Below are positions 6,640 to 19,664 of a stretch of 20,676 nt of DNA, one piece after another. Location: the NCBI RefSeq assembly GCF_006345805.1, contig NW_021824492.1, positions 1 through 20,676 on the forward strand, given 5' to 3'. The notes under the pieces are model-generated. The model had not been told where the DNA came from. It made no database searches and saw nothing but the letters and a program-made list of their open reading frames with translations. Origin of the DNA: Octopus sinensis. Taxonomy: Eukaryota. How positions within the stretch are numbered: the first letter of the stretch is position 1; each line of letters starts with the position of its first letter. Both the position numbers and the translations under genes were made by a program.

Positions 6640-6854
6640 GAAGCTGGCGAGCTGGCAGAAACGTTAGCGCCCCGGGCGAAATGCTTAGCGACATTTCGTC
6701 TGCCTTTACGTTCTGAGTTCAAATTCTGCCGAGGTCGACTTTGCCTTTCTTCCTTTCGAGGTCGATAAAATAAGTACCAGTTGAGTACTGGCGGTCGATG
6801 TAATAGACTATCCTCATCCACCAAACTTCAGGTCTAGTGCCTATGGTGCGAAGG

Positions 6855-6962: not shown

Positions 6963-7144
6963 TGTGATTAATGAGAGAGAGAGAGAGACGGAAGATGGAA
7001 GATACGAGAATTTTTATTGGTCGCTGCAATCGTTTCGATCCATCTAATATCGATCCCGGGGGTGGATCGATGCTGGATGGGTCGAAACAGTGATTAATAA
7101 AAGCTCTCGTATCTTGCATCTTCCGTCTCTCTCATTAATCACAC
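6963..7144. repeat. About 180-bp imperfect palindrome with outward-facing GAAAC motifs
   Basis: tgtgattaatgagagag..acggaagatg.aagatacgaga pairs with tctcgtatcttgcatcttccgtctctctcattaatcaca; inner gtttcgatccatc...gatgggtcgaaac. Confidence 0.9.
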
Positions 7145-7206
7145 ACACGCACGCACACGCACACACACATACATACACTCGCACACAACGACACGCAGAC
7201 AGATAC

Positions 7207-7250
<44 letters not shown>

Positions 7251-7339
7251 TTCAATTGTTCAGAAAACAAATGACAAAGACAGGTGAAGGAACAACAAGC
7301 AGGTGTATTAGTTTGACGCTCGGGAAGAATGGAAAAGTC

Positions 7340-7374
7340 CTTGACGTTTCGAGCCTACGCCCTTCGACAGAAAG
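7340..7374 (-). ncRNA. Minimal type I hammerhead-like motif, variant core
   Basis: Minus: cttt CTGTCGA a gggc-gtag-gctc GAAA C GTC aagg; stems I and II pair; core position A6 is U. Confidence 0.6.
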
Positions 7375-7843
7375 GGATGAGAGGAAAAAAATGGAGAGAC
7401 CAAAAAATGTGTAGGGATTAACGGCTTAACATGATGAAATATATATAATCTTTTATTCTTCTTTTATGTTTCAAGTTTTAGCCGAAGAACTGACGTTATT
7501 ATGCAGAGGAGGCGTTAGAATACAAAATACTGCGTTGTATCCCTTCAGAGGATTTCTCATCGGGACTCGTGAGGCAATAAAAGCATGAGTAATTATATCG
7601 CTGACAGACCAGTATCTTCTTCTACAGTCACCGGAACGTGTCTTACGGTGAATAAATAATACTCCAAGATTTTTTCCAGTCTCCTGTGCGTGAGGGCGTG
7701 TGTGTGCATATTTTTATAAACTCCATATAAAGTTAGATCTTGGCAAGATTTGAACTCAGATTTGTAGACTAAAATATCGAGAGTTCTTTTATACTTCATT
7801 CTAGAGAGCGCTGCCAAACTGGCTCTGGGTCTCCGAATGTAGG

Positions 7844-8070
7844 GAATATTCTTTTCTTTTCTACTTTAGGCAAAAGGCCCCAAATTTTTGGGGAGGGGGC
7901 CAGTCGATCAGATCATCCCCAGATCGCAACTGGTACTGTAGTTTATCGACCCCGAAAGGATGAAAGGCAAAGTCGACCTCGACGGAATTTGAACTCAGAA
8001 CGTAACGGCAGACGAAATGCGGCTACGCATTTCGCCCGTCGTGCTACCGTTTCTGCTTGCTCGTCGCCTT
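7844..8070 (-). mobile_element. tRNA-derived SINE family B
   Basis: Reverse-complement homologue of 6640-6856; perfect TSD cgaatgtagg at 7834-7843 and 8071-8080. Confidence 0.93.
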
Positions 8071-8165
8071 CGAATGTAGGTAAAAGTGTAGGGAAGGGAG
8101 GAGGAAGAGAAAACGGGAAGTAAGAGGGAAAGAGGAAAAGAGAAAGTCAAGGAGAGGAGAAAGAT

Positions 8166-8262
8166 GACGAAGAAGAAGGAGACGAAGAAGAAGGAGACGA
8201 AGAAGAAGGAGACAAGAAGAAGGAGACGAAGAAGAAGGAGACGAAGAAGAAAGAAGAAGAAG
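8166..8262. repeat. 15-bp purine-rich minisatellite (GACGAAGAAGAAGGA), about 6 units
   Basis: Direct tandem units. Confidence 0.9.
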
Positions 8263-8353
8263 GGTGGGGACATTTACATCCTGGAAAATTAGATTTGAGA
8301 TGTTTGTCGCGTGAACGGAATTCCCATTGTTTCAAAACGTGAATGTAGATAAA

Positions 8354-8404
<51 letters not shown>

Positions 8405-8701
8405 CACACACACATATGTATATGTATATATATATGTATGTATACAAGTACAGACGGATACGCGCACGCGCGCACACATATACAAGTCCAAACCAAACAT
8501 GTGAGGTCCAGAAAACATTGTCTTGTGGTGTTCCTGAAGTGCTTTGATGCTTAAGTAGACGCCATGATAAGTATGACTCCAGTCAGACTACATACCTCAA
8601 GGTAGAGTTAAGTGTCTTGTTTAAGAGAGACGTGTTAGACACTTCAGAACATTAACTAAAAATCGCATTCCTTCGGATATACATACATACATACATACAT
8701 A

Positions 8702-8737
<36 letters not shown>

Positions 8738-9480
8738 TGTATGTATGTATGTATGTATGTATGTATGTATGTATGTATATTTTTTCCTTCTTCCTGTCTA
8801 CGTGTTCCTCTTTCCCCCCATATAACTTCTGTTTGCTCTCTCGGCATTTCAAGGACGCTCATTCTCTCATATACACACGCATCTACACTTACATATACAC
8901 AGGCACATAGAAAGTCACACGAGACACTCACATACAAAACCACACGCAGAAACGCTCATTCCCACCCGGAAGTGGGCCGTGACAGCGCTCGATCAATTGA
9001 CCAGAGACGTTAACTTGTCGAATAAAATGGATCACGCTATTTTATTCCGACCCTCGGCGTTTAGAGTTCAAATACAACCGAAGACATATTTTGACCTTCA
9101 GCCTATTTAGAGCAGTTATTCGCAATCAGGGTCCCTTTAAGGTTTCGTGTTAAAATTTATATTCAATAAATTTTAAGAATAGATGATATATAAAAAGGAT
9201 TTTGGGATACAATTCCTAATATTTCATTATAAACTTATAACAGGATTTGTTAAAGAACGAATAGCTTTGGGGGTGGATTCAAATAAAATAGGAACCAAAG
9301 GAGCCCATGAGTCTAAAGGGATGAGAACCAGCGATTTAGGGTCGATAATATACCAGCCCTGTGCCACAGCAGGCTCTCATATCTTCCGTGTCCTACCCAC
9401 TACCCGTACGTCTGGGCACTTACACACACACGAGCGCTCGCACACACATACACACGAAGACACTCACATACACTTATGTT

Positions 9481-9513
<33 letters not shown>

Positions 9514-9603
9514 CGTATATTAGAAGGTTTGGAAATGATGTACAGGTATTTTATATTAGAAGAAATGAGGTACTCAGAAATTCGGATGGTTTTATATTTA
9601 CAG

Positions 9604-9831
9604 ATATTTATTTGTATATTACATATTTTTATACATCATATAACTTATATCATATAATAGCGCTTTCGTCCATTCTGGTGAATTTTTCAAATTGCGTTCA
9701 TTCTGGTGGATTTTACAAATGGAAATCCATGGAGTTCCATTTGAAAAATCCACCAGAATGGACGAAAGCGCTAAAAATATGATATATGATATAAGTTATA
9801 TGATGTATAAAAACATGTAATATATAAATAT
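9604..9831. repeat. About 230-bp palindrome with HHR 3' halves
   Basis: Arms share tttttatacatcatataacttatatcatata and tagcgctttcgtccattctggtg; centre at ccatgg 9727-9732; GAAA-GCGC-TA at 9764-9773 and on minus 9658-9667. Confidence 0.92.
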
Positions 9832-10189
9832 ATTCAGGAAACGAAAAAATAGTTTCACTATTCCATAGCAAAACCGTTCTACTATACTTTGACAATTTTT
9901 TGATATCTTGGCATTTGATGCAGCAGGAGATACGATAGTTTGACCAAAACAACCGGCTATTGCAAACAAGAATAAATATTGAAAAAAATGCATTTGGCCA
10001 AATTTAGTCATGCGATAGCTTAACATAAAACCAACGATACATATATCATTTGATTCATTCTTTAATTTAATTGTTTTTCTTTTTAATTAATATCCACCTT
10101 TATTTTACTCTTAGTTGAAAAAGTCGAAAAAACAGAAACCGGTATTAACCATTACAAAGTGTATTTCATGATAAAACTATTTTAGCATT

Positions 10190-10190
10190 T

Positions 10191-10226
<36 letters not shown>

Positions 10227-10591
10227 GCTATCTATCTATCTAATCTATCTATCTATCTATCTAATCTATCTATCTTCTATCATCTGTATCTATCTAGTGA
10301 CACACACACATGCAAATATATATGCATTCATATATATATAGGTATATATATATTGTATATATATATATGTATAGATATAATATATATTATGTATATATAT
10401 ATATATAGATATAATATATATATATTATATTTATATAATATATATATATATATACATATATACTATATATATACATATTATATATATACATTAATATCTA
10501 CATATATATATATACATATATACAGATATATATATACATATATACCTATATATATATAACATGAATACATATATATATATATATATATATA

Positions 10592-10624
<33 letters not shown>

Positions 10625-10667
10625 TACATATATAACGGAAGCTTAAATAAAATAGACAAAAGATATG

Positions 10668-10708
<41 letters not shown>

Positions 10709-10776
10709 TATGTATGTATATATATATATATACTATATATATACATACATATATATGTATATATAGATATAATATA

Positions 10777-10807
<31 letters not shown>

Positions 10808-11001
10808 CATACATATATATGTATAATATATATATAATATATATATATTTATGTATATATAATATATATCATACATAATCATGTATATAATATATATATA
10901 TATAGATATATATTATTATATTATATAATATATATATATATATACATACTATATATTATGTATATATATATATAATATATATATATATATAATATATATA
11001 T
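10190..11001. repeat. (TCTA)n then long degenerate (TA)n field
   Basis: Direct. Confidence 0.95.
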
Positions 11002-11171
11002 TAAGAGATCGTACAAATAATGCATAAATCGCTGCATTTAAATATGCAACAATTTGCAATTAATGTGATTCGAAACACGTGTCGGAAAATTCTTATGAAT
11101 AAACCAACTGCAAATTAACAAAGTTTGAATGTTCAAATTCTTTATTCTCCTTATTATCAATATATATAGAA

Positions 11172-11327
11172 ATACATACTTGCATACATGCATACATACA
11201 TACATACATACATACATACATACATACATACATACATACATACATACATACATACATACATACATACATAGATGCAAACGTACATACATACATACAAAGA
11301 TACATACATATATGCATACATACATAC

Positions 11328-11390
<63 letters not shown>

Positions 11391-11400
11391 GTGTGTGTGT
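11172..11400. repeat. (TACA)n/(TA)n/(TG)n microsatellite
   Basis: Direct. Confidence 0.95.
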
Positions 11401-11840
11401 AATTGTTAAAGTGGATAGCAAACGTTAAGGCAAGACAAATATCTCAAGTCATATACGTTATTATTGGAAAAATCCAAAGTATATATATATATATATGTGT
11501 GTGTGTGTGCGTGTGTGTGTATACTTACATACATGCATACAGACACAGATTGGGAATTGGAAAATTTATAGGTGTTATTTATTCCCCCTTACACATGTTC
11601 CACACACACACACACACATGCACGTACACACATACATGTATATATGTAGATATGAACGAATACATATACATGCTTATAATGATGTGGCCGTGTTCTGCGC
11701 CCTTGAGACCTTAAGTATTGTTAAGTATTTTGGAGTTGAAAGTCAATCTGTTAGTGTAGAGATATATATAACTACAAGTTTCTATGCACCAACTTGTATG
11801 TGTGTGTATGTGTGTGTTGTGTGTGTGTGTGCGTATGTAT

Positions 11841-11872
<32 letters not shown>

Positions 11873-12314
11873 TGTGTATGTGTGTGTAAACTACACGACA
11901 GAAGTAAGAAGGGAAAATTCCATCTGACCTCCATCGATCACGCTTGTGTAATTTTCTTTTATAAACTAAATTTTTCAGACGTCATCTTCGGAATCCGAAA
12001 TTCTTATCAGACGCCCTGAAAAAGTCTTTATTCTTTGTCTAATATCCGCTTCTAAATATAGGCCCCTGAGAATGTATCACGGAAGATGTGTGTCTTAGCC
12101 TCAGGACGAAAACCAGCCCATTGAAGCTCATCCCGTTCAACCAAGCTCACAGGTCGACCTTCATCAGACACTGCCATAGCTCAAAACGAAACCCCTTCGA
12201 TGTCCATTTAACAAGAGACTCAATGCAGACAGGGTCGGTTTTAAATACGATTTTGTCGCGAGACCAATGTTGCGTAAGGGACCACAAAGACGGAAAAAAA
12301 GGCACCCTCCAAAT

Positions 12315-12790
12315 TCAAAAGATGTTGATTGATAGAAAGCTTAAAGGGGTGAATATTAATGATGAGAGGAAGAAAAGACGACGGCAGTTTCTGTGGTGGA
12401 AAGAAGCTGTCGGAATAAAAGGAGACTTATGACTAACAAGGGCTGAAAAGGGAAACGATATGTCTAGGAAGAGGAGCGGGTGACACGTTTTAAAGGTCTT
12501 GACAAAGAGTGTCTGACCAAAAAGTTCATGAGGACAATGACCTTGGAAATACTTATAGAAAAAGACACAAGGAAGGCACTTTCCGACGATAAGGCAAAGA
12601 CTCCAACACAGCATATCGACAATCGATCCTGAATCTGATCAAGCAAGTGAAGACACTTCGAAGAAGCACCAGTCCAAAGATGGCAGCGATATTCAATGAA
12701 AGCTGGAATGGTGACCTCATAAAGATGCAAAATACTCTTGGACATATTCCAAGAATTTCGGACCCAGACCAAACAGAAACACATCTGCCA
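12315..12790 (-). mobile_element. Decayed non-LTR retrotransposon ORF2 C-terminal fragment (CR1/L2/jockey group)
   Basis: LHLYEVTIPAFIEYRCHLWTGASSKCLHLLDQIQDR resembles the LYKS.IRP.MEYC..VW.GA....L..LD.VQ.R post-RT motif; frameshifted continuation FFYKYFQGHCPHEL. Confidence 0.85.
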
Positions 12791-12958
12791 GTACAGGTAA
12801 CGTAACTGTTGCATTTTCATCAGAAGAAGCGATTCCAAATTAGGATCTCATCGCAGTACCTCGTGCGTTCTACGCGTGCGCATAGAGGCTGCTCTTCCTC
12901 ATCCTTTACCTGCACACGGTGCAAAACCAGTGCCCGGCATCCAAACACATATCTAAAA

Positions 12959-13207
12959 TGCAAGGACTGCAACGAGTCCGAGGACTCGATTCAGTTTCGA
13001 TAGCGTGACCGAGAGTACAACACTCTTCTTGAATGGGACACCAGTCCGTCACAAGGTTGGGGCCCATTTACAGCAGAATGGACGGGAGCAACTGAGTGGA
13101 ATGAAGGGTTTTGCTCAAGAAGACAACGCACCGCCCGGTCTGAGAATCGAAACCTTGATGTTGCGATCGTTAGTACAACACTCTGACCACTAGGCTAGCT
13201 GCCTTAG
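12959..13207 (-). mobile_element. tRNA-derived SINE related to family C
   Basis: Minus head tagcctagtggtcagagtg...ggtttcgattc, core gcgttgtcttcttgagcaaaac; TSD atatctaaaa at 12949-12958 and 13208-13217. Confidence 0.85.
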
Positions 13208-13477
13208 ATATCTAAAACAGATTCAATATTTCGCAATTTCCCTAAAGAAAACGAGACAGAAGGAGGGGGGAGGGAAGGAGGGAAGGAAGGAAAGAAGAAA
13301 GGAAGAGGGGGAAGGAAGAAATGGAATCCAGGAAAGACTAAAGGCCTTTTTGACGACAAAGGGAAGGATTTCGACTCCCGGAGATAACACCCGAAAAATT
13401 ATGTTTCTAATAAAGGATTACACAGAAAAGGGGACATCAAATCATAATGGCTAGTATATTTAAGATTGTAATATCAC

Positions 13478-13690
13478 TTTCAAATTTCTGCAAAAGCGGA
13501 ACAAGTTCGGGCGATCCGGTGAGTTGATTACATCAACCCCAGTGCATAACTGGTACTTATTTTATCCATTCCGAAACAATAAAAGACAGAGTCGACCTCG
13601 ACGGAATTTGAACTCAGAACGTAAAGACAAACGAAATAACAGTAAGCACTTTGCCCGGCGCGCTAACGATTCTGCCAACTCGCCGCCTTA
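13478..13690 (-). mobile_element. tRNA-derived SINE family B
   Basis: gtcgacctcgacggaatttgaactcagaacgtaa is identical to the 7844-8070 copy; head ends ctcgccgcctta. Confidence 0.92.
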
Positions 13691-14837
13691 ATAGAAACCT
13701 ACAATAGGAAATGTATTTACGACTATTAACACTGTTGATCCCTTCTTTTTTAAGGTTGTACACAGACTGATTTAAGATGCATTTAGCTGTTATGTCTAGC
13801 AGGTCGAGCCCACTGATGGTGGTAGTTTTGATAATGATGGCGATGATGGTTACTGAAAGTGGTGGCGCTGATGTTGTTAATAAATAGAGGTTGTGCATGG
13901 AGATATTAGGAGTCATTGTGAAGGTGGTGGTGATGATGGTGATAATGGTATTGTTGTTTGTGATGGGGTTTGGGGAATGGGGCTTATTAATGATAATAGT
14001 ATCTGAGTGAGGAGATGAAAAACGGATGTGGATGGGCGCTGTGCTATTAAACTACAAATCTCAAGTCCTTCAGGACCTCATCAAAACCCGGAATCAACGT
14101 TTTCACAGAGCGAAATTTGCCAATTCTGTTTAAACACTAAGTTGATGAGAAAAGTAGGACGCAGACTCTTCTCGCGTTTCAAAATAGTTGTTGTGTTGGT
14201 ATTTTTATATTTAAAGACACAGACACAGTCCTCACGGACACACACAAGGACACACACAGGCATACTCACACAAATATTAATATAAACACAGCCATACGCA
14301 ATGTGTTACCGAAAAGGAAAACTATAAATGTCACTAAATGCGACTAGGGTGTTAGGACACCTTCATTGCTAGAAATAAGAGCTAAAATGGTCTACTTGCT
14401 GTAGTGAAGGCACATAAATTGTATCCATATATGCTGAGAGGGATGTAATCGGGCAAACACCGATCGAGAATTCGATAGGTACAAATATATATATGTATAT
14501 ATATGTATATGAATATGTATACATGAAATATAACATGTTTGTGTGTGTGTGCGTGTGTGTGTGTGTGTGTGTATGTGTAGATGCATATGATTCCAAATAT
14601 ACATACATAATATATACATATAATATTTATGTGAAATAGAAAGATGAATAATCTTTAGTAGATTAATCAACAGTTTAACCGATACCTTAGTAGCAAAAAT
14701 CACAGCAGTAAACAGCACGGTTGGAGTACAAACCATCTGGCGTTGCAACCGTGCGTTGGTGCGGATAATTGAAATTAAAACATTATTGGTGAATTGAAGA
14801 AATGGAGCTGAACGCAGATTGAACAGAAATCGTTTAT

Positions 14838-14923
14838 TTCATTCTACACGTGTTCGAAAGGCACAAATTACCAAAATCCGATTGAATAATGGGACCATAT
14901 TGTGTCTTTCTCTTCAGGAAGAA
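14838..14923 (-). ncRNA. Mirror copy of the minimal hammerhead ribozyme
   Basis: Reverse complement of the 15021-15106 HHR, but reads GAA instead of GAAA. Confidence 0.7.
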
Positions 14924-15020
14924 AAAAGGAAATCCGTTGGAAAAACAAAAACAGAACAGAGGCGATTTGTTTTTTGCTCCGCCTCTGTTCTGTTTTTGTT
15001 TTTTCCAACGGATTTCCTTT

Positions 15021-15106
15021 TTCTTCCTGAAGAGAAAGACACAATATGGTCCCATTATTCAATCGGATTTTGTAATTTGTGCCTTTCGAAACACGTGTAG
15101 AATGAA
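15021..15106 (+). ncRNA. Minimal type I hammerhead ribozyme
   Basis: Stem I ttc; CTGAAGA 15027-15033; stem II gaaagacacaa/ttgtgcctttc; GAAA 15088-15091; palindromic CACGTG; TA; gaa. Canonical core, predicted cleavage after GUA at 15099. Confidence 0.88.
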
Positions 15107-15192
15107 ATAAAACGATTCTGTTCAATCTGCGTTCAGCTCCATTTCTTCAATCACCAATAATGTTTTATATATATATATATATTATATATAAT

Positions 15193-15223
<31 letters not shown>

Positions 15224-15365
15224 TATATATATATTATCTATACTACTTGTACACGAAACAGGGAATAAGAATGGTGCAAACAATTTAAGGTAAAGAACAA
15301 TACAGGAATAATTACAAGACTACACACACACATACACAGACACACATGCGTACATACACAAGAGA

Positions 15366-15854
15366 TATTGGCGGAACATTCCCATCAAAACTTCTAGCAA
15401 GTGCGAACTTAATCGGCTTAATATGGCTGTTTGAGGCAGACAAAATCAAAATATGCACCTTATAGAAATCAGCTGCCCTGCTGATGTGAATATCTCTTTG
15501 AAAATCAAAGAGAAAGAAGATAATTATGGACAACTGCTTCGAAAGTTTCAGCTTCTATATCGGGATTCTAAATCTACGTGTGATGCCAATAATAATTGGT
15601 GCATTTGGCATTATCAATAACTGCCGAAGTGACAATCTGTATAACCTAAGGTTTTCAGAGAAAGTAATTAGCTAAACACGCGCATAACCTATACAATCTT
15701 TAAGTGGAAAAATAAAAATCTGTAAGACTTTTCTCAAGTTTAAATTGTGACATTGTTTTTGTTATCTGCATTCCAGCGATGGAGCTTTGTATCTTTGTTA
15801 GAAACCGGCCTCTTCTTCAGAGGACGGATTTAATTAATATCAGAAGAGAAAATG
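15366..15854 (+). mobile_element. R4/Dong-type LINE 3' fragment (restriction-like endonuclease domain plus 3' UTR), pseudogenised
   Basis: YWRNIPIKTSSKCELNRLNMAV*...IEISCPADVNISLKIKEKEDNYGQLLR...PIIIGAFG...KICKTFLKFKL* (stop 15748-15750); internal stops and frameshift; ends in (CATA)n. Confidence 0.88.
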
Positions 15855-15897
15855 CATACATACATACATACATACATACATACATACATACATACAT

Positions 15898-16253
15898 AAT
15901 GATGGCTGTCCACTGGTGACTCAGGAAGACCATCACTGACAATCAAAAACATTGTGCACTTAGTTTTATATTTAGACTTGTGACTCCGCTGGTGACTCAT
16001 GAGTCCAGCTGTTGACAAATAAACATGTCCACAAATATATATATTACTGACCAGTCTTCTCCCATTCACTACACTGCGGTGCATTTCGGAGCAGCTCGCT
16101 TAAACGATGCATGGAAAATGTATTTCTTTTCTAAATACCAATTCCTTCTTTTACCCGATTCATCCAATGGTCACGATGACCATCATTGCTTTCCCAGTTA
16201 GCGTTCCATATCTCACACGTCTTCGGCGGGAATTTTACACACCCCTTAAATCA
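15898..16253 (-). mobile_element. RTE-clade LINE 3' fragment, pseudogenised
   Basis: FKGCVKFPPKTCEIWNANWESNDGHRDHWMNRVKEG ... HASFKRAA ... CGHVYLSTAGLMSHQRSH (RTE C-terminus with zinc-finger remnant); ends in (ATGT)n. Confidence 0.85.
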
Positions 16254-16598
16254 TATCCAGTGTAGTACCTTGAAATTAAGTGCATATCCTTAGTTTCATG
16301 GTGTAAATTATGTAACATACGAATGTTATCGCCTTGGATAACAAAGTCAATCTACCATAGATATTTTTGCCAGGATATCTGTTTGTTATTCACTATAAAT
16401 TGCCAACTGAAATAAAGCGATATAAAAGGTAACACCGCTGGACTTCCGCCAAGGGGCTGGGAGATACATCTCATCTAGGACAAAATACCAATCCATTGTA
16501 TATAAAGTTTATAATATAATCCGGAAATTCTAACTTTTAACATCTCCGTATCTAATCTCAACCAAAAAAGGCAACAAAACGATAAATTTGAGGAATGA

Positions 16599-16949
16599 GT
16601 AAAATTCTGTGAAGTTGAAACAGATAAAGAGTTGGAAAATATTAGACCGGACATAACAATTATAAATAAGTAAAAGCGAAGTTGCTTTCTATTCGATCCG
16701 TTTGATTCCAGGATCATAAAGAAAAAGGACGAAAAACAAAAAAAGAATAGAATTCCTTGAATTTTGAAACAGGAAGAATTTAGAGCATGAAAACAGTAAA
16801 GGTCGTGCTTATAATAATTGGGAACAGTAATAAGGATAGATATAGACAAATGGTTGAAGGAGACTGGAATAGAATGCTCCGTAGAGCTCTTACAAAATGT
16901 TTGTCTCTTAGGGACAGTAAAGATTATCAGGAGGGTTCTAAGCTCTTGA
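16599..16949 (+). mobile_element. Second, distinct R4/Dong-type LINE endonuclease fragment
   Basis: VETDKELENIRPDITIINK* (RPD at 16644-16652) ...PFDSRI...KVVLIIIG...DKWLKETGIECSVELLQNVCLLGTVKIIRRVLSS*. Confidence 0.88.
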
Positions 16950-17311
16950 AAGACTGCGGGACTGGTCTTCAAGTGTAAAGTCACCAGACCGGAATTTCTC
17001 CAATTATCGACGTACAGTGCCTTCATTCACCACATCTTCCCCAAACACCTCATTGGTGTTTTGAGCTGTCTGGGATGCATTGGTTCAACGATGGAACTCA
17101 TATTCATAAACAACATAAGTTTTTTTTATCTATCCATGGGTTGACAAAAATTGATTTACAAGAGAAAACGTACAATATAATCAGACACCAGGAATTGCAT
17201 TTCGATAAAATGATGATGTAACTCTTCAATGTTGTAAAACAAAGAATTGTCAGGACAAAACATTAAAGTTAACGACTGTCAAAAATCGGACATTTCCTTT
17301 TTAATGACCTG

Positions 17312-17347
<36 letters not shown>

Positions 17348-17384
17348 TAATAATAATAATAATAATAATAATGTATGCGTGGTA

Positions 17385-17560
17385 TAGGGGCAGACATGCT
17401 GTGCAGTTAAGAATTTTGCTTTGCAGCTAAATGGTTTCAGGTTGAGTTCCATGGAGCGGTGCCTTGGGCAAGTGTTTTCACAAGGCACTGGTCAGTCCAG
17501 GGTCGACCAGTGCCTTGTGAGTGATTTTGGTACGCGGAAACTGTGGGAACCTATTGTGTA
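17385..17560 (+). mobile_element. Diverged SINE family A-like 5' part
   Basis: caggttgagttcc B-box remnant, gccttgggcaagtgt, gccttgtgagtgattttggta match the reverse complement of the 1784-2568 copy. Confidence 0.8.
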
Positions 17561-17572
17561 TGTGTATATATA

Positions 17573-17606
<34 letters not shown>

Positions 17607-17611
<5 letters not shown>

Positions 17612-17889
17612 AAAATAAGAAAATAGAGATAAAACAATTAATAATTATATTTAGTAATTACAAAAATAGACATAATCTCTGACAGTTGTTTCGATTCAAA
17701 CTTTAAAATTAATTAAAATCATTAAATCTTTATAAAGTTGATTCAACTTTATAATGATTTTATAATGATTTAATTATCTTAATTAATTTTTAAAGTTTGA
17801 ATCGAAACAATTGTCAGAGATTAAGTCAATTTTTGTAATTAATAAATGTAATTATTAATTGATTTATCTCTATTTTCTTATTTTTCTTA
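17607..17889. repeat. 283-bp AT-rich palindrome with HHR 3' halves
   Basis: taagaaaaataagaaaatagagataaa...tttatctctattttcttatttttctta; centre 17742; GAAA-CAATTG-TC-agaga from 17804 and mirror at 17676-17692. Confidence 0.92.
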
Positions 17890-18089
17890 AATAAATATAT
17901 ACCTCGGTTTATTTAATTACCTATTTTTGAATATTAAATCTAAAATTTAAAATCAATAATAGTTAATAAACCAGTAAATTCATTGTATATTATCCCTAAT
18001 GAGGCTTATTTAACCTCCAATGAACTTATATATATATATATATAATATATATATTATAATTATATCTATTATAGATATTATATATATAT

Positions 18090-19619: not shown

Positions 19620-19664
19620 ACACCTGATGAAGGCTGGAGAGTATATCAGCCGAAATGTTATGGT
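19620..19664 (+). ncRNA. Minimal hammerhead-like motif, partly degenerate
   Basis: acac CTGATGA(19624-19630) a ggctg-gagagtatat-cagcc GAAA(19652-19655) tgtt atgg; core and stem II intact, stems I/III decayed. Confidence 0.72.

Follow-up and report, generated by a model that had tools for sequence, protein, structure and literature searches.

Palindromes of Octopus sinensis as head-to-head pairs of truncated Penelope-type element ends

The window considered here, the whole 20,676-nt stretch of Octopus sinensis contig NW_021824492.1 that was analyzed (positions 1 to 20,676, forward strand; assembly GCF_006345805.1), is microsatellite-rich DNA from a 2.7-Gb assembly and contains palindromes at 6963–7144 (P1), 9604–9831 (P2), and 17607–17889 (P3). 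These are head-to-head pairs of the 5′-truncated ends of three multi-copy families, the longer copies of which extend to a Penelope-type endonuclease. Each pair is likely a single insertion, with a probability of roughly 60%, in which reverse transcription would have started from both strands of a cut, with the resulting short cDNAs joined at their 3′ ends. The palindromes are real and ordinary in kind, and as sequence they are dead insertions. An initial annotation of the window had suggested that they are half-ribozymes formed when stem II of a hammerhead ribozyme primes fold-back or template switching; it omitted a fourth palindrome, P4 (14776–15167), within its own span.

All three palindromes first described are recovered by arm-to-arm alignment, with identities of 80/94 aligned columns in P1 (arms at about 6964–7056 and 7064–7142, some flanking CA repeat included), 89/95 in P2 (9597–9692 versus 9739–9841), and 121/130 in P3 (17607–17736 versus 17759–17889). 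The outward-facing CGAAA is indeed found on both arms of P1, P2, and P3. The short palindrome said to follow it is less uniform. It is present on both arms of P2 (GCGC-TA), exactly on the right arm of P3, and on the left arm of P1 (CGATTG-CA), but it has one mismatch on the left arm of P3 (CAACTG-TC) and is lost to a 6-nt deletion on the right arm of P1. The coordinates given initially fall short, as one-sided tails extend the P2 left arm to about 9519 and the P3 right arm to about 18008. Genome-wide, the two-arm pattern gives 28 matches of the P2 type, 67 of the P3 type, and 12 of the P1 type, compared with 0, 0, and 1 in the control; with counts so far above the control, the palindromes are more than chance. 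The arms are laid out as follows.

P1 left arm, 6964–7056, minus strand: 3′ part of a Penelope-like pseudo-long terminal repeat (pLTR), running from the loop II accessory hairpin through the 3′ strand of stem II and GAAA to a decayed CGATTG-CA and the tail; compared with parent copies L062–L090.
P1 turn, 7057–7063, no strand: matches the loop at the tip of the ATCC...GGAT hairpin that the parent has within loop II.
P1 right arm, 7064–7142, plus strand: CGAAA at 7083–7087; the 6-nt deletion lies in helix III.
P2 left arm, 9519–9725, minus strand: long tail and a 27-nt tandem duplication; core variant TTGAAAA at 9684–9690; CGAAA GCGC TA from 9668.
P2 right arm, 9734–9830, plus strand: begins at the stop site of its family (A|GTTCC); TTGAAAA at 9741–9747; short stem II; CGAAA GCGC TA from 9763; early tail end.
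P4 left arm, 14627–14964, minus strand: one-sided tail of about 150 nt that matches the 5′ pLTR-to-open reading frame (ORF) sequence of the full-length element L320.
P4 right arm, 14980–15167, plus strand: complete hammerhead motif, with CTGAAGA at 15027 and CGAAA CACGTG TA at 15087; the turn is about 45 nt upstream of the core.
P3 left arm, 17607–17741, minus strand: stops at the family's short tail end.
P3 right arm, 17740–18008, plus strand: starts with GATTC (17740–17744), the first stem II bases after the parent core CCGACGA; CGAAA CAATTG TC at 17803; its one-sided tail is long and reaches about 18008.

The arms all belong to dispersed families, most copies of which are single arms. In the parent families, a C-terminal GIY-YIG endonuclease lies upstream of the 3′ pLTR (by colinear overlap in the case of P3). 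Two loci of the P1 family, L072 and L086, give tblastn matches to the P4 endonuclease with E values of 1e-14 and 2e-12. Three long loci of the P3 family yielded no endonuclease; it was found one step further out, at L295 and L294, which match that of P4 (E values of 3e-11 and 3e-10) and are colinear through L281 with the hammerhead. Between the endonuclease end and the hammerhead this family (L294, L281) apparently has 2–3 kb of AT-rich sequence, partly from later insertions. For the P2 family, the frame of L111 has YIGETG and matches the Pfam GIY-YIG model at E = 0.003, under the curated cut-off. The P4 endonuclease peptide has no Pfam match and the atlas gives only a lead (a cluster with 11% GIY-YIG), while a weak search for longer proteins carrying the P4 endonuclease found 0/128 candidates. 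The P4 family does have a full-length parent, L320, with an uninterrupted 899-aa frame between two direct pLTRs and with DKT, RW, and YRDD motifs; these we take to be motifs of the reverse transcriptase (RT) type. Two direct pLTRs around the ORF were seen for this family alone, and full-length copies were not recovered for P1, P2, and P3.

The hammerhead motif was found in the pLTR of the parent families and, as the half-ribozyme reading needed, the parents of P1 and P3 carry an upstream core. Exact CTGANGA is found in 13/29 copies of the P1 family and a recognizable core in 25/29; relatives of P1 read ATCAC CTGAAGA GACACATCTA, then a roughly 60-nt loop, and TAGATGGGTC GAAA CAATTG TA GTGAT, which is a complete type I motif. 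The P3 family has CCGANGA, a U4C change, in 8/27 copies and CTGANGA in 1/27, with relatives that read CCGACGA GATTCAAC, a loop, and GTTTGAATC GAAA CAGCTG TC. In P4 the motif is intact on the right arm (CTGAAGA...GAAA CACGTG TA) and has a one-base gap on the left arm; the core is full on both. The P4 arms (14627–15167) differ only by seven single-base gaps, and the family is young, with 97–98% identity.

The statement that CUGANGA is missing from all three palindromes holds to the letter, yet for P2 it misleads. On both P2 arms, the core variant TTGAAAA sits exactly 23 nt 5′ of GAAA, where 89 genomic relatives have TGANGA. The P2-family motif, TGANGA N TCCAC NAGA RTGGA C GAAA GCGC, in which N7 varies, has these 89 exact matches in the genome and 0 in the control. 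P2's own subfamily has TTGAAAA (U3–A8) at the core in 46/57 arms, and an older subfamily has TTGANGA. P2 is not a half-ribozyme; the whole minimal motif, core variant plus stem II, is found on each arm. U3–A8 covariation in the core has been reported for hammerheads of Penelope-like elements (PLEs) (PMC4209133). The U3–G8 (TTGANGA) of one P2 subfamily and the U3–A8 (TTGAAAA) of another (L138–L167, L032–L122) could mark a two-step covariation path. An earlier candidate for the P2 core, CTGANGA directly before GTTCC, was rejected, with 2 matches compared with 3 in the control and with CTGANGA absent from the element part of 10 long copies; the actual core, TTGANGA or TTGAAAA, lies further 3′, closer to GAAA.

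Judged by sequence, the predicted motifs have what a minimal type I hammerhead requires, namely C3–G8 or U3–A8 together with GAAA and UH. The G10.1–C11.1 pair is present in the P1, P3, and P4 parents and absent from the P2 family (G in 1/89 matches), which makes the claim of the P2 motif as a working hammerhead weaker. Minimum-energy folds computed for the parents of P1 and P2 lacked the hammerhead arrangement. An Rfam scan of the window produced 228 matches, of which the 150 listed include no hammerhead family; those ranked highest are hairpin and microsatellite look-alikes of microRNA models.

The ends of the palindromes also follow a family pattern. Outer ends are unequal in 27/28 P2-family palindromes; in 15 of the 28, one arm reaches a long fixed end and the other a short one, with about 36 nt between the two sites, and solo copies of the family end at the same long and short tail sites. 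P3 and P4 have longer one-sided tails, of about 115 and 150 nt. Axes vary within families, and an inverted 5′-truncated copy joined at variable positions is combined with a one-sided tail, as in PLE insertions. The flanking DNA is mostly TA or CA repeat, and no target-site duplication (TSD) beyond TA-repeat words was found at the four window elements, where TA-repeat flanks would mask a TA duplication.

From the family identity, variable axes, one-sided tails, and TA- or CA-repeat flanks seen in these copies, we infer a series of cutting, priming, stopping, and joining steps. The RT-endonuclease of the element would cut AT-rich DNA, and each strand would prime at either of two internal start sites, which in the P2 family are separated by about 36 nt. 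Each cDNA would stop early, at a position that depends on the family, and the cDNA ends would be joined through 1–6 nt of microhomology or a local hairpin. P1 and P3, with stops inside stem II or loop II, would be the shortest outcome of the same process. The position of the hammerhead, immediately upstream of the priming sites, would account for its frequency in palindromes, as every short cDNA copies it first; no special role for stem II is needed. The idea in the initial annotation that the inversion arises during reverse transcription is likely correct.

An indication of two templates comes from a 27-nt duplication found in 10/133 arms. It is confined to one arm in 6/6 informative palindromes, the long-tail arm in three and the short-tail arm in three (L046 was scored by eye). 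A single self-copying cDNA would place the duplication on both arms, and thus a one-armed duplication favors two templates. In vitro, a PLE protein (Poseidon of Anolis, PAc) cuts and extends both strands, starting at two internal sites that match tail ends (PMC11167929). The one-armed duplication and this two-strand extension favor two joined cDNAs over one that snaps back.

Several observations weigh against the joining of two cDNAs. Arms of the same palindrome share 67 non-consensus alleles, compared with 28.4 +/- 6.7 when arms are re-paired (maximum 52 in 5000 shuffles; L235, a near-duplicate of L234, is left out), and the arm-to-arm distance is under the between-locus mean in 22/27. Such sharing fits a single template too; with two templates, they would need to come from the same source or period, or the arms would need to have been converted later. 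The junctions of P1 and L233 are neatly explained by a self-priming cDNA hairpin with a 4–6 bp stem and a real loop, and junction palindromes have been interpreted as self-priming in the literature (PMC3846280). On the protein side, the 899-aa frame of the P4 family is without a significant Pfam or PDB match, so that the RT call rests on its motifs, and the RT domain is not tied directly to the P1, P2, and P3 families, where the endonuclease end alone was recovered.

Part of this evidence fits an alternative that is possible but doubtful, in which one Penelope-like cDNA would snap back on a local hairpin or microhomology and copy itself, with the endonuclease resolving the second end at the inner tail site. 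Rare alleles common to both arms fit it, and P1 fits well, with a turn that coincides with the ATCC/GGAT hairpin of the parent. In L233 the turn falls on a TCCATT/AATGGA match of 6 bp, and many turns are at self-complementary words (AATT, GATC, CCATGG, AACGTT). Self-priming was proposed in PMC3846280, and the tail is ascribed to endonuclease resolution in PMC8557442. However, a cDNA that copies itself explains poorly why the duplication is one-armed, in half the cases on the short-tail arm. Also against snap-back, junctions often contain a single-nucleotide centre (GAAC-A-GTTC) or added filler bases, and some centres hold unrelated inserts (L132). Some palindromes (L017, L023, L108) join at CTGA/TCAG, the core versus the complement of the cleavage site, or at the helix III GCGC; self-complementary words of the motif can act as microhomology.

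Priming of the fold-back by hammerhead stem II itself, giving a distinct class of half-ribozyme palindromes, is very unlikely given where the axes lie. The initial annotation put the axis at the stem II loop, but in none of P1, P2, and P3 does the native stem II hairpin of the parent form the centre. The turn of P2 lies about 10 nt 5′ of the core, and that of P3 at the base of stem II; in P3 the long arm starts at GATTC and the short arm 2–3 nt further on, loop II is on both arms, and the turn loop of 1–3 nt differs from the loop of the parent. P1 is the only one of the three to turn within the stem II domain, on the ATCC...GGAT accessory hairpin within the loop II of about 60 nt. P4 and its family turn at many upstream points, and across families the axes range from loop II to >100 nt upstream.

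Counts in the larger families point the same way. Among all 28 matches of the P2 family (one pair being near-duplicates), the core is on both arms in 22, on one in 6, and on neither in 0. Here 20/28 axes lie 22–38 nt from GAAA, within 15 nt 5′ of the core, where 4.6 would be expected if axes were uniform (P = 2e-10); three of the remaining axes are further in and five further out. The P3-like sample, the first 50 of 67 matches, mixes several related families and comes to 49 after L175 was dropped (8-bp arms, no tail homology). In this sample, both arms extend to the core or beyond it in 27/49, and the core is missing from both in 5/49 compared with 2.6 expected (P = 0.11, a difference that chance allows). 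What speaks for stem II is the lack of a core on both arms of P1 and P3 and the P3-like palindromes in which the shorter arm ends in the core (3/49) or in stem or loop II (14/49). In addition, neither arm reaches the core in 3/6 P1-like palindromes among the 12 P1-type matches (P = 0.02 under a naive uniform null); the other family among these matches has the core on both arms in 5/6 and lacks both in 0/6. The uniform nulls are naive in that truncated cDNAs are biased to be short, a bias that would weaken the case for stem II, not strengthen it. Overall, the axes are not tied to stem II, contrary to the earlier reading, with the P1 family as a weak exception. The axis distributions across families do not support fold-back primed by the ribozyme's own hairpin, and half-ribozyme palindromes do not hold up as a class when the core is missing from both arms in 0/28, 5/49, 3/6, and 0/6 of the P2-family, P3-like, P1-like, and further-family palindromes.

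That the palindromes are miniature inverted-repeat transposable elements (MITEs) or foldback DNA transposons with terminal inverted repeats can be dismissed as highly improbable: the long inverted repeats, TA-rich flanks, and high copy number (388 to 1611 first-look candidates) are suggestive, but most family copies are single arms, ends are unequal and centres vary between copies, no TSD is seen beyond TA-repeat words at the four window elements, and long copies lead to a GIY-YIG-type endonuclease. With one-sided tails, (TA)n targets, and no TSD found, the arms are hammerhead-bearing retroelement ends, as the initial annotation had supposed. They resemble MITEs in being short, palindromic, present in many copies, and without coding capacity, but P1–P4 have no fixed terminal inverted repeats, show no propagation as a unit, give no readable TSD of fixed length within their TA-repeat flanks, and have a retroelement as their parent. 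For annotation, the point is that such palindromes are Penelope-like ends and not MITEs. A non-LTR retrozyme was also considered and rejected; copies are dispersed solos or head-to-head pairs, not head-to-tail tandem hammerhead arrays.

The layout of these insertions, the opposite-strand hammerhead pairs, and the idea of self-priming are already published (PMC3846280, PMC8557442, PMC4209133). Endonuclease-positive PLEs are known for an inverted 5′-truncated pLTR, a junction palindrome, and a one-sided tail (PMC3846280, PMC8557442). The octopus palindromes share with them a head-to-head inverted truncated copy, a one-sided tail, microsatellite targets, and a TATA plus initiator (Inr)-like motif in the pLTR; unlike the insertions described there, both copies are stubs without an ORF, the P3 and P4 tails (about 115 and 150 nt) are longer than 30–40 bp, and no TSD is readable. 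The minimal hammerheads of metazoan PLEs (PMC4209133) have the same type I layout, palindromic helix III, and U3–A8 covariation (P2), and opposite-strand motif pairs 100–700 bp apart were already reported there. Differences from that description are the long loop II of the P1 and P3 parents (about 60 and 35 nt), the predominance of CCGANGA in the P3 family, and the P2 family without G10.1–C11.1. The C-terminal endonuclease, DKT, RW motif, canonical hammerhead, and (TA)n targets of the P4 parent are like those of Hydra-clade PLEs as described in PMC8557442, and the P1 and P3 endonuclease ends are similar to that of P4. This likeness is by motifs, and the P4 motif is RWL, not RWK. The P2 endonuclease gives no tblastn match to that of P4 and likely belongs to a clade other than the Hydra type. 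As in the PAc system (PMC11167929), which comes from a different clade and host, two internal priming sites downstream of the hammerhead match genomic tail ends, and there both strands are cut and extended. For the origin of inverted PLE copies, self-priming has been proposed (PMC3846280), and two-strand extension has been seen in vitro (PMC11167929). A literature search of openly readable main texts found nothing on palindromes primed by stem II or on the use of palindrome axes to locate PLE start sites.

The fixed stop of the P2 family and the one-armed duplication are small, countable clues to how PLEs make inverted copies, and the residual interest of the palindromes lies in that duplication, which favors two templates. 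The stop lies at a constant distance of 8 nt 5′ of the core, at the A of TTAGTT and 32 nt after the first T of TATAAAA, a distance that fits TATA/Inr spacing. At such a spacing, the stop site is likely the RNA 5′ end of the element. Tail-selected solo copies end at the same hot spot as the palindrome arms, at −27 to −32, in 9/27 (2 inverted); 13/27 extend to −57 or beyond, one ends at −37, and four end further in, with L108 and L113 unplaced for want of an anchor. By analogy with Penelope of D. virilis, the stop could alternatively be a 3′ splice site at helix I (PMC4209133). A tentative extension, somewhat less probable than even, is that the pile-up of axes and solo ends would mark a capped RNA 5′ end, that the stubs would be "strong-stop" cDNAs with priming in the front part of the message, and that one-armed indels would reflect a dimeric PLE enzyme with two RNA templates, one per DNA strand. 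If true, genomic palindromes would map PLE promoters and probe the insertion mechanism without bench work.

Other repeats are scattered through the window. A solo CGAAA CACGTG TC at 11071 (plus strand) without an upstream core is a single arm truncated inside stem II. Another family is represented at 19624–19655 (plus strand) by a solo hammerhead-like CTGATGA AGGCTGG...TCAGCC GAAA, and a further repeat family at 7345–7370 (minus strand) by a decayed solo motif, CTGTCGA...CGAAA CG TC. Copies of a short interspersed nuclear element (SINE)-like repeat at 6641–6791 and 13539–13689 are oppositely oriented and 81% complementary, with a similar copy near 7890–8070.

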